DNA of 64,000 bases, from assembly GCF_054482595.1 (NCBI RefSeq), contig NZ_CM137008.1; one strand, 5' to 3'. Both the position numbers and the translations under genes were made by a program. How positions within the stretch are numbered: the stretch's first letter is position 1; the number at the start of each line of letters is the position of its first letter. A model generated the notes under the pieces. It was not told the origin of the DNA and did not search any database. It saw only the letters and a program-made list of their open reading frames with translations. Positions 4,944 through 49,120 of this stretch are shown here, piece after piece.

Positions 4944-7747
<2,804 letters not shown>

Positions 7748-45865: not shown

Positions 45866-46579
45866 ATGGAAAAAGTCATGTTGTCCTTTGACAAAGTCAG
45901 CGCCCACTACGGCAAAATCCAGGCGCTGCATGAGGTGAGCCTGCATATCAATCAGGGCGAGATTGTCACCCTTATTGGCGCGAACGGGGCGGGGAAAACC
46001 ACCTTGCTCGGCACGTTATGCGGCGACCCGCGCGCCACCAGTGGGCGAATTGTGTTTGATGATAAAGACATTACCGGCTGGCAGACGGCGAAAATCATGC
46101 GCGAAGCGGTGGCGATTGTCCCGGAAGGGCGTCGCGTCTTCTCGCGGATGACGGTAGAAGAGAACCTGGCGATGGGTGGTTTCTTTGCCGAACGTGACCA
46201 GTTTCAGGAGCGCATAAAGTGGGTGTATGAACTATTTCCACGTCTGCATGAGCGTCGTGTTCAGCGGGCGGGAACGATGTCCGGTGGTGAACAGCAGATG
46301 CTGGCGATTGGTCGTGCGCTGATGAGCAACCCGCGTTTGTTGTTGCTTGATGAGCCATCGCTCGGTCTTGCGCCGATTATCATCCAGCAAATTTTCGACA
46401 CCATCGAGCAGCTGCGCGAGCAGGGGATGACTATCTTCCTCGTCGAGCAGAACGCCAACCAGGCGCTAAAGCTGGCGGATCGCGGCTACGTGCTGGAAAA
46501 CGGCCATGTGGTGCTCTCCGATACTGGTGATGCACTACTGGCGAACGAAGCGGTGAGAAGTGCGTATTTAGGCGGGTAA
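45866..46579 (+). CDS. livF: Branched-chain amino acid ABC ATPase LivF
   Basis: Walker A GANGAGKTTLL; start taken as ATG 45866 (MEKVML) immediately after the livG stop; the ORF track begins 12 nt further upstream. Confidence 0.95.
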   Translation: MEKVMLSFDKVSAHYGKIQALHEVSLHINQGEIVTLIGANGAGKTTLLGTLCGDPRATSGRIVFDDKDITGWQTAKIMREAVAIVPEGRRVFSRMTVEENLAMGGFFAERDQFQERIKWVYELFPRLHERRVQRAGTMSGGEQQMLAIGRALMSNPRLLLLDEPSLGLAPIIIQQIFDTIEQLREQGMTIFLVEQNANQALKLADRGYVLENGHVVLSDTGDALLANEAVRSAYLGG

Positions 46580-46697
46580 ATTATCGAATACCCGGCAGCC
46601 ACGTTCTGTCGGGCTCTTCGTCCGTATACAGACTTGTTTCAACTGACCGGGAGGATTAAAACCAGACCACTTATTTGCCACGGAAAGGTTCCCTCCC

Positions 46698-47444
46698 ATG
46701 CATTATGCCGTTGTCGCCATGCTTGAAATGCTTTGCTGTATCCACGCTTACCGTACCGGACAAGAGCGATATTGGTTTTTTATCATCTTCTGTTTTCCGG
46801 TGATTGGTTGCGTGGCGTATTTTGTCATGGTGATGCTGCCAGAAACGGGCGCTGACCGTCACGGGCGTACCTTTCTGATGCGCCTGCAGGACAAAATCAA
46901 TCCGGAACGTCACCTGCGCAAATTAACCGAAGAACTGGCGATTGCCGAGACGAATCAAAACCATTATGCGTTGGCTAATGAACTGGCGCGTCTGGGGCGT
47001 TATCACGAAGCTGTTCCCCATTATCAGCAGGCGTTAAGCGGGATATTCGCCCATGAAGCGGCAATGATGCTAAGCCTGGCGCAGGCACAGTTTGCTATTC
47101 AGGAGTTCGCCGCCTGTCAGCAGACGCTGGAAGATGTGATGCGTTATAACCCTGATTTTCAGTCGGCAGACGGGCATTTGTTATTTGCCAGAACGTTAGC
47201 CGCACAAGAAAAATACGCTGATGCGGAAAGTGAGTTTGAAGTGTTGGTTTCTTATTACCCCGGCCCGCAGGCGCGTATTTACTATGCGGAAATGCTGGAG
47301 AAAATGAGTCGGTTACGTGAAGCCAACGAGCAGTATGTTGCTGTAGTTGATACGGCTAAACGCTCAAGACCTCATTATAGAAAACACCACCGGGAATGGA
47401 TTAAGACCGCCAATGAGCGGCTGAAGCAGAGTGTGGTGCAATGA
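46698..47444 (+). CDS. Hypothetical membrane-anchored protein: PLDc_N-like hairpin anchor plus helical (TPR-like) domain
   Basis: 248-aa ORF with normal codon usage; N-terminus YWFFIIFCFPVIGCVAYFV resembles the PLDc_N membrane-anchor motif; the rest is alpha-helical repeat-like; as far as I recall K-12 annotates no gene between livF and ugpB. Confidence 0.55.
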   Translation: MHYAVVAMLEMLCCIHAYRTGQERYWFFIIFCFPVIGCVAYFVMVMLPETGADRHGRTFLMRLQDKINPERHLRKLTEELAIAETNQNHYALANELARLGRYHEAVPHYQQALSGIFAHEAAMMLSLAQAQFAIQEFAACQQTLEDVMRYNPDFQSADGHLLFARTLAAQEKYADAESEFEVLVSYYPGPQARIYYAEMLEKMSRLREANEQYVAVVDTAKRSRPHYRKHHREWIKTANERLKQSVVQ

Positions 47445-47515
47445 AAATCTTCTTTGCCGTTAGACCAGTGTCGCGGCAATCTTTTGTTAAAATTGAAAAA
47501 TGTAGCTCTCATCGG

Positions 47516-47606
47516 GCAGCAAAACTGGACGCAGAATTTGCTGCCATTTTTGCTCTTCATGGTAAGGAGTTCTGGCGATTAGCTGGCCGTTAATCGCCTC
47601 TTTTCA
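47516..47606 (+). terminator. Two tandem candidate terminator hairpins
   Basis: GCAGCAAA-N13-TTTGCTGC followed by a T-rich run, then GGCGATTA-N9-TAATCGCC followed by TCTTTTC; downstream of the 248-aa ORF and the liv operon. Confidence 0.4.
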
Positions 47607-47665
47607 GTGCATTCTCGGGATATCCGTGCCCCATCTCCCATTTTCCCTCACCCGTACCGTCACCG

Positions 47666-47745
47666 CCTTGTCATCTTTCTGACACCTTACTATCTTACAA
47701 ATGTAACAAAAAAGTTATTTTTCTGTAATTCGAGCATGTCATGTT
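47666..47745 (+). promoter_or_regulatory. ugpB promoter region with PhoB boxes
   Basis: TTGTCATCTTTCTGACAC and TTCTGTAATTCGAGCATGTCAT match the CTGTCAT-N4-CTGTCAY Pho-box pattern 60-140 bp upstream of ugpB. Confidence 0.7.
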
Positions 47746-47803
47746 ACCCCGCGAGCATAAAACGCGTGAATTCGCGCATTCGGTACAACAAGAGAGATAA
47801 ACG

Positions 47804-49120
47804 ATGAAACCGTTACATTATACAGCTTCAGCACTGGCGCTCGGACTGGCGTTAATGGGGAATGCACAGGCAGTGACGACCATTCCGTTCTGGCATTCTA
47901 TGGAAGGGGAACTGGGTAAAGAGGTGGATTCTCTGGCCCAACGTTTTAACGCCGAAAACCCGGATTACAAAATTGTACCGACCTATAAAGGCAACTACGA
48001 ACAGAATTTAAGCGCGGGGATTGCCGCATTTCGTACCGGCAACGCTCCGGCTATTTTGCAGGTTTATGAAGTTGGCACCGCCACCATGATGGCGTCGAAA
48101 GCCATTAAACCGGTGTATGACGTGTTTAAAGAGGCGGGGATTCAATTCGATGAGTCGCAGTTTGTGCCGACGGTTTCCGGTTACTACTCCGACAGCAAAA
48201 CGGGCCACTTACTCTCCCAGCCGTTCAACAGCTCGACCCCCGTTCTCTATTACAACAAAGACGCCTTCAAGAAAGCAGGATTAGACCCGGAACAGCCGCC
48301 GAAAACCTGGCAGGATCTGGCGGACTATTCTGCAAAACTGAAAGCCTCCGGAATGAAGTGCGGCTACGCCAGCGGCTGGCAGGGCTGGATCCAACTGGAA
48401 AACTTTAGCGCCTGGAACGGTCTGCCGTTTGCCAGCAAAAACAACGGCTTTGACGGCACGGATGCGGTGCTGGAGTTCAACAAGCCGGAGCAGGTGAAAC
48501 ACATCGCCATGCTCGAAGAGATGAACAAGAAGGGCGATTTCAGCTACGTCGGGCGTAAGGATGAATCCACCGAGAAGTTCTATAACGGTGATTGCGCGAT
48601 GACCACCGCCTCTTCCGGTTCTCTCGCTAATATTCGCGAGTACGCCAAATTCAACTATGGCGTAGGCATGATGCCTTACGACGCCGATGCGAAAGATGCA
48701 CCGCAAAACGCCATTATCGGCGGGGCCAGCCTGTGGGTGATGCAGGGCAAAGATAAAGAAACTTATACCGGCGTGGCGAAGTTCCTCGACTTCCTCGCTA
48801 AGCCAGAAAATGCTGCCGAGTGGCATCAGAAAACTGGTTATCTGCCAATCACCAAAGCGGCGTATGACTTGACTCGTGAGCAGGGCTTTTATGAGAAAAA
48901 CCCAGGGGCGGATACCGCGACGCGTCAGATGCTGAATAAGCCGCCGTTGCCGTTCACCAAAGGGCTGCGTCTGGGCAACATGCCGCAGATCCGCGTGATT
49001 GTGGATGAAGAGCTCGAGAGCGTGTGGACCGGCAAGAAGACGCCACAGCAGGCGCTGGATACCGCCGTTGAGCGTGGGAATCAGTTGCTGCGCCGTTTTG
49101 AGAAATCTACGAAGTCTTAA
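47804..49120 (+). CDS. ugpB: sn-glycerol-3-phosphate-binding periplasmic protein UgpB
   Basis: 438-aa solute-binding protein with signal peptide. Confidence 0.95.

Follow-up and report, generated by a model that had tools for sequence, protein, structure and literature searches.

LapB (YciM) is an inner-membrane-anchored cytoplasmic TPR adaptor of E. coli that couples LpxC to FtsH. It carries one N-terminal helix and ends in a rubredoxin domain; the protein is essential, and its gene adjoins lapA. HemY, a protein of about 400 aa with a HemY_N domain, is located in the hem operon. YfgM, CpoB (YbgF) and NlpI are periplasmic TPR proteins, held by a single helix, a signal peptide and a lipoprotein anchor. 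A further described module is the PLDc_N domain, which also makes up many small stand-alone membrane proteins. It is non-catalytic and modular, and both cardiolipin synthases and small SHOCT-fused proteins carry it (PMC3581485).

In this study, we analyzed a gene located between livF and ugpB in a 64,000-nucleotide stretch of E. coli DNA (contig NZ_CM137008.1, assembly GCF_054482595.1), hereafter called the window. Like LapB, its 248-aa product would be a small inner-membrane-tethered TPR protein without an enzymatic domain, and it is predicted to face the cytoplasm. In contrast to LapB, it has a two-helix hairpin, is dispensable, and has no conserved neighbour. Neither the Pfam nor the NCBIfam scan found a rubredoxin domain, the adjacent genes are livF and ugpB rather than lapA, and the search for a specific sequence relationship to LapB returned generic TPR matches only.

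HemY shares the order of N-terminal membrane helices followed by a TPR domain, whereas the family described here is free-standing and about 245 aa in length; the HemY model TIGR00540 matches with an E-value of 5.5e-4 and 18.8 bits, below its cutoff of 142. YfgM, CpoB and NlpI differ in their anchors, and the topology predicted for the 248-aa protein points to the cytoplasm rather than the periplasm; scores lie far below the family cutoffs (31.1 bits against 90.1 for the CpoB/YbgF model TIGR02795). The likeness to PLDc_N (PF13396) consists of two hydrophobic helices, a short basic loop and a W...P..G...Y signature in helix 2. On cardiolipin synthases HKD domains follow this module, whereas here a TPR domain follows; no HKD/PLDc catalytic domain was matched by Pfam after the hairpin of the 248-aa protein, and the cardiolipin synthase model TIGR04265 (bac_cardiolipin) matches the N-terminal 56 residues only (E 0.1, 11.5 bits against a cutoff of 290). 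A conserved histidine in helix 1, H16, also distinguishes the TPR family from PLDc_N. By analogy, the protein may be regarded as kin in kind to the membrane-anchored TPR scaffolds LapB/YciM, YfgM and HemY, and as a member of none of these families.

The gene between livF and ugpB

The ORF lies at 46698..47444 on the + strand, as do all features given below. It begins with an ATG at 46698, ends with a TGA at 47442-47444, and encodes the putative membrane-anchored TPR protein of 248 aa, whose residues 25-43 form the hydrophobic string YWFFIIFCFPVIGCVAYFV. It is flanked by the end of livF at 46579 and the start of ugpB at 47804, which leaves a spacer of 1,224 bp. The DNA of the CDS is 100% identical to the WP_021557283.1 gene of strain XH990, and the O157:H7 orthologue is WP_000558842.1. 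RefSeq names both proteins 'tetratricopeptide repeat protein', and the source databases hold no more specific name for the gene. In the transcriptome numbering of strain Sakai, ugpB is ECs4299 and livK is ECs4305 (PMC2241611), so by gene order the TPR gene should be ECs4300; neither the gene nor this locus tag was mentioned in the literature searched. It is an ordinary, already annotated accessory gene, and its family is catalogued yet uncharacterised.

We judge the ORF to be a genuine gene and not a chance reading frame, because full-length homologues reach down to 31% identity and because its dN/dS is low. Its start codon also aligns with the starts of distant homologues. By the Nei-Gojobori method, dN/dS is 0.13 against the O157:H7 allele and 0.05-0.08 in the computable comparisons with the orthologues of C. 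freundii (L006) and an enterobacterial metagenome contig (L008); dS is saturated for the window or O157 against C. freundii L006, and those pairs give no ratio. Collectively, these values (0.05-0.13) indicate that the gene is under purifying selection. Its GC content is 49.9% and its GC3 is 52.6%, compared with a GC3 of 65-68% for the flanking transporter genes and a mean GC of 53% for the window.

Membrane hairpin and TPR domain

The architecture was examined in an AlphaFold2 model built from a 21-sequence alignment (mean pLDDT 87.9), together with profile searches. Residues 1-51 (46698..46850) form a PLDc_N-type hairpin, assigned from the modelled secondary structure, the conservation in 58 members and the Pfam PLDc_N matches. 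Its helices span residues 2-20 and 23-51 in the model, the second bending at P34; both helices have a mean Kyte-Doolittle hydropathy of 2.1, and the loop that joins them has 8 residues. A basic linker of lower confidence (residues 52-70, 46851..46907, pLDDT 53-67), defined from the model and from charge counts, connects the hairpin to the TPR domain at residues 71-247 (46908..47438), which was delimited by Pfam, AlphaFold and the family alignment. This domain contains about five helix pairs and a basic C-terminal capping helix, with a pLDDT of about 88 or higher over residues 71-240. In the model, the tandem helix-turn-helix pairs stack in a right-handed solenoid, as in TPR proteins. The family motif NPDFxSADGHLL(Y/F)AR ... 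YYPGPEAR falls within it.

An earlier note on this DNA had proposed a PLDc_N-type membrane hairpin fused to TPR-type repeats without an enzymatic motif, and the profile searches and the confident model agree with this description, for PLDc_N at the level of the family. The TPR assignment is significant in the protein itself (TPR_19 i-E 2.5e-6, TPR_2 1.3e-4, TPR_1 1.4e-4), and TPR_19 is matched by 47 of 58 family members at E<=1e-3. PLDc_N is sub-threshold in the window protein, with an i-E of 0.0099 and 16.3 bits over residues 26-43 (positions 22-39 of the 42 in the model). It recurs across the family: when 58 diverse members were scanned singly, 9 matched at E<=1e-3 and 43 at E<=0.1, the best at 1.6e-5. 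Moreover, a Foldseek search of AFDB50 found full-length relatives, and 9 of the top 50 are named 'Cardiolipin synthase N-terminal domain-containing protein', a name derived from InterPro. One AFDB relative is auto-named 'Lipopolysaccharide assembly protein B'.

No enzymatic motif occurs among the Pfam and NCBIfam matches, and no NCBIfam model scores above its cutoff for the 248-aa protein. None of the PADLOC defence models matched it at E<=0.1. In PHROGs the sole match, at E 0.078, is to a family of unknown function, which does not place the protein in a phage family. The sequence search against the PDB returned only designed or generic TPRs (E>=0.0036).

The family and its gene neighbourhoods

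Homologues have E-values from 1e-156 to 1e-29 and lengths that are almost all 243-258 aa. Identity falls from 96% in E. fergusonii to 68-78% in Citrobacter and related enterics, 43% in Pseudomonas and 31% in metagenomic Proteobacteria. A profile search over 1.84 billion representative proteins yielded 674 clusters (50% identity) at E<=1e-30, nearly all of 240-255 aa and matched end to end. The hosts include enterics, Pseudomonas (P. alcaligenes and P. chengduensis among them), Xanthomonadales, Xenorhabdus, Gilliamella, methanotrophs and several Alphaproteobacteria. In 58 diverse members W26, G37, Y41 and A176 are invariant, and the positions conserved in at least 90% include H16, G21, P34, P48 and P69 as well as the canonical TPR alanines and glycines. 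The membrane hairpin is thus conserved more strongly than any other part of the protein, suggesting a role beyond that of a passive anchor.

Gene neighbourhoods were compared at 81 loci by clustering the ORFs within 4.5 kb and annotating representative neighbours with NCBIfam. No neighbour is conserved outside the enterics among these loci, and the sole gene cluster shared across lineages is of a generic sort, with the enteric ABC ATPases livF and ugpC among its members. The neighbours are AccA and TilS in Xanthomonadales and CtlX in another group; in Pseudomonas they are MscS, a LOG-family protein, PnuC or an FAD monooxygenase, and differ between species. In Luteimonas, Pseudoxanthomonas and Thermomonas (L048, L051, L071, L075, L087 and others), accA lies upstream and tilS downstream, a lineage-specific synteny. 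The gene is therefore free-standing, and because its neighbours outside the enterics are unrelated, its position between liv and ugp carries no information on function. The location between liv and the Pho-controlled ugp, which the earlier note had pointed out, is uninformative for the same reason. Guilt by association was likewise dropped as a route to function, since the 81 loci offered no conserved neighbour outside the enterics.

Flanking signals and an antitoxin relic

A hairpin follows the livF stop codon at 46591..46613 (CCCGGCAG...CTGTCGGG; RNAfold -13.4 kcal/mol), and its stem is preserved in O157 and in Escherichia E1V33. A T-to-C change distinguishes CTGTCGGG of the window, with a G-U pair, from CTGCCGGG of O157 and Escherichia E1V33, with a G-C pair. 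The hairpin has a poor T tract and was not called by the terminator scan; it is possibly a weak terminator of the liv operon. Further downstream, the conserved block at 46627..46662 contains a weak sigma-70-like promoter candidate, composed of TTGTTT (46634-46639), a 17-nt spacer and TAAAAC (46657-46662). Conservation of the block (ACAGACTTGTTTCA...GGAGGATTAAA) extends over Escherichia, C. freundii L006 and L008, and the candidate at 46634-46662 falls below the threshold of a simple consensus scan. We infer a promoter function for this block from its sequence and conservation. A putative ribosome-binding site, GGAAAGG, was read from the sequence at 46682..46688, 9 nt 5' of the ATG; it is partly conserved in the orthologue alignment and could possibly serve as such. 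Rfam gave no matches at E<=1 over 46400-47900.

Downstream of the gene, the terminator scan called a terminator-like hairpin at 47574..47605, GGCGATTA...TAATCGCC followed by TCTTTTC (hairpin 47574-47598, then a T tract; RNAfold -16.3 kcal/mol), which is the probable transcript end. A second downstream hairpin is located at about 47515-47545, followed by ATTTTTGC; as a feature read from the sequence it spans 47515..47557 (GGCAGCAAA...TTTGCTGCC, then ATTTTTGCTCTT) and has the look of a terminator. The scan did not call it because its loop exceeds 8 nt. RNAfold of 47505-47560 gave -18.1 kcal/mol, but in a fold without the GGCAGCAAA/TTTGCTGCC stem, and the sequence of this stem is preserved in Citrobacter-like loci. 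The terminator-like hairpins of the earlier note are thus both present at these positions, with the correction that both sit in a segment derived from a phd antitoxin gene.

This segment was recognized in the 176 bp between the TPR stop codon and the shared region upstream of ugpB, which hold a 50-aa ORF at 47441..47593 whose ATG overlaps the stop codon of the TPR gene (ATGA). In BLASTP, its last 36 residues align to the very C-terminus of C. freundii Phd (L006 6738-6959) at E 9e-9, so that 47483..47593 matches the 3' end of a Phd/YefM antitoxin gene. Only these C-terminal 36 residues are represented, not a full-length antitoxin with its N-terminal DNA-binding domain, and no Doc/Fic toxin gene lies downstream in the window, unlike in C. 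freundii L006, where the phd-fic/doc module sits between the TPR gene and ugpB. Judged by this alignment, 47483-47593 is a relic of a toxin-antitoxin module. Escherichia E1V33 and E. whittamii lack the relic segment; across other Escherichia lineages, the phd segment is missing or a REP-like palindrome stands in its place. The 50-aa ORF is annotated as 'hypothetical protein' (WP_165388683.1) in at least one RefSeq genome. We rejected it as a small coupled gene, because other Escherichia do not conserve it and the half that is conserved corresponds to the phd relic. The gene content of the livF-ugpB spacer varies considerably between lineages.

Two alleles of the spacer in E. coli

Among 5,426 complete E. 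coli genomes, megablast found the full 1,224-bp spacer in 659. In the remaining genomes, K-12 MG1655 and Nissle 1917 among them, the match is confined to the last 183 bp, just upstream of ugpB, with the boundary at query position 1042 of the spacer. A search with the ORF alone likewise hits 659 genomes; in every case 80% of the ORF or more is covered, at 93-100% identity, all hits are chromosomal, and the rest of the 5,426 show no trace of the gene. Carriers therefore make up about one-eighth (12%) of E. coli genomes, and the gene is absent from about 88%. EHEC O157:H7 and O145:H28 carry it; K-12 and Nissle lack it. Alignment against K-12 and other E. coli, which had been suggested as a check, thus resolves two states of the locus.

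The K-12 spacer is 398 bp long and has no annotated gene, in agreement with the earlier note, and the TPR gene is not found in K-12 at this position. A three-way alignment and the megablast boundary delimit a variable segment of 1,041 bp at 46580..47620, which corresponds in K-12 to about 215 bp of unrelated sequence comprising a hairpin and two REP-like palindromic repeats. This gene-less allele is located at L002 2786-3000 in K-12 and at L093 988-1200 in Nissle 1917. The two spacers are 98% identical and represent one gene-less allele, and neither tblastn nor sensitive blastn found a remnant of the gene in them. By these alignments, the difference between K-12 and the gene-bearing allele is best described as a replacement rather than a simple insertion. 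The common K-12/Nissle allele suggests a single replacement event followed by spread through most of the species.

The identical livF-X-ugpB slot is occupied in C. freundii and in two enterobacterial contigs of 68-78% identity, and likewise in Escherichia cryptic-clade strains, E. whittamii, Pseudocitrobacter and Citrobacter sp. NCU1. The draft genome of E. albertii has ugpB downstream of the gene, and no intact livF ORF was found upstream. Furthermore, the dS between the window and O157 is 0.12 for the TPR gene and 0.08-0.17 for livG, livF and ugpB. Since the relatives have the gene in the same slot and its dS is like that of the flanking genes, the simplest reading is that the gene is ancestral at livF-X-ugpB in Escherichia and Citrobacter, was lost in most E. 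coli, and that the gene-less allele, now predominant in E. coli, is derived. The earlier note had called this an extra gene. The gene is indeed real and K-12 lacks it, but the polarity is reversed, an ancestral and RefSeq-annotated gene having been deleted in most E. coli. Its replacement there indicates that the gene is dispensable in those lineages, and its loss from about 88% of E. coli means that its function is conditional or redundant.

Proposed role and alternative readings

With moderate confidence, we favour the reading of a free-standing, ancestral gene with its own weak promoter, encoding an inner-membrane TPR scaffold with a PLDc_N-type hairpin. Transcription from this promoter would probably be monocistronic. 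The N-terminal two-helix hairpin would hold the TPR domain of about 180 residues at the inner membrane, where this domain most likely acts as a non-enzymatic scaffold that binds one or more partner proteins and keeps them there. Because the hairpin carries the most conserved residues of the family (H16, W26, P34, G37 and Y41), it may contribute specificity, either towards the surrounding lipids or towards a partner in the membrane, rather than serve as a plain anchor. Regarding topology, the means over 58 members are 2.2 K+R and a net charge of +1.7 for the inter-helix loop, and 5.2 K+R with 3.0 D+E for the 25 residues after helix 2; the N-tail consists of three uncharged residues. This distribution (5.2 K+R after helix 2 against 2.2 in the loop) favours N-in/C-in with a cytoplasmic TPR domain, a prediction made solely from the positive-inside rule.

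The same architecture could instead place its TPR domain in the periplasm (N-out, C-out), with an envelope role like that of YfgM, CpoB/YbgF or NlpI. The inter-helix loop is itself net positive, but since the positive-inside rule favours the cytoplasmic side, we regard a periplasmic domain as rather unlikely. We consider it doubtful that the combination of hairpin and TPR domain, which spans at least 674 clusters at 50% identity in Gamma- and Alphaproteobacteria, defines a distinct, undescribed inner-membrane adaptor or regulator in which the hairpin would read the lipid or membrane state and the TPR domain would recruit a specific client. A role in regulating or assisting the adjacent Liv or Ugp transporters, with the position reflecting the function, would account for the same-strand adjacency to livF and ugpB in all enteric carriers. 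It is scarcely credible given that the neighbours beyond the enterics are unrelated and that K-12 operates both transporters without the gene; in addition, a hairpin separates livF from the TPR gene, and the ugpB promoter region lies past the terminator-like hairpins of the latter.

Two further alternatives concern the history of the gene. A horizontally acquired insertion, by which some E. coli would have gained the gene as a small island between livF and ugpB, fits the patchy distribution within the species (12%), a GC3 below that of the neighbours, and gene neighbourhoods that vary even between Pseudomonas species. The toxin-antitoxin module in the C. freundii spacer and the relic of one here also imply a site that takes up foreign DNA. 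We nevertheless find an insertion very improbable, because other Escherichia species and clades, Citrobacter and Pseudocitrobacter have the gene in exactly this place at 68-97% identity, its dS against O157 matches that of the flanking genes, and no integrase, IS element or direct repeats were seen at the boundaries; the gene-less allele, being one haplotype common to K-12 and Nissle, fits a single replacement and subsequent spread. The gene in E. coli might also be a functionless relic near loss, intact only because little time has elapsed. Its absence from 88% of complete genomes, an IS disruption in one strain, the frameshift in the E. albertii type-strain draft and the decay of the neighbouring phd-doc module all lean in this direction. 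However, two E. coli alleles with differences at 12% of their synonymous sites give a dN/dS of 0.13, every one of the 659 carriers retains 80% of the ORF or more, with one disrupted copy in an evenly spaced sample of 40 of them, and the family is kept full-length across Proteobacteria. Strong purifying selection where the gene is retained argues against a dead relic, which we consider improbable.

The practical value is modest: at a well-known position, one gene cleanly sets K-12 apart from pathogenic and other wild lineages of E. coli. The gene belongs to a large proteobacterial family that apparently nobody has studied. As natural E. coli strains exist with and without it, its role, and possibly that of the PLDc_N hairpin, is open to simple genetics. 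If the doubtful proposal of a distinct adaptor were true, this natural presence/absence polymorphism would provide a direct handle on the widespread, unexplained PLDc_N module. The locus also illustrates the turnover of a spacer between core operons, in which a gene, a decayed toxin-antitoxin module and REP-like palindromes replace one another.

Sequence variants at individual loci

The C. freundii spacer (L006/L007 5850-7324) contains, in addition to the intact phd-fic/doc module, two more ORFs of 93 aa and 135 aa without Pfam matches. In the draft of E. albertii NBRC 107761 (L017), the orthologue is frameshifted near codon 186 (~6550-6570; …LISITQARRRV…), so that the copy is a pseudogene or else the draft contains a sequencing error; this locus also differs in sequence upstream of the TPR gene, and its livF ORF appears broken. 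In E. coli Br_112_kylling (L094 1547-3136), a partial IS4-like ISVsa5 transposase follows approximately codon 37 of the TPR gene and splits it into two annotated pseudogene fragments. The O145:H28 allele (L096 301-1050) is 750 bp in length instead of 747 bp owing to an in-frame 3-bp insertion, which is also found in H33, and RefSeq labels this allele 'hypothetical protein' rather than TPR protein.
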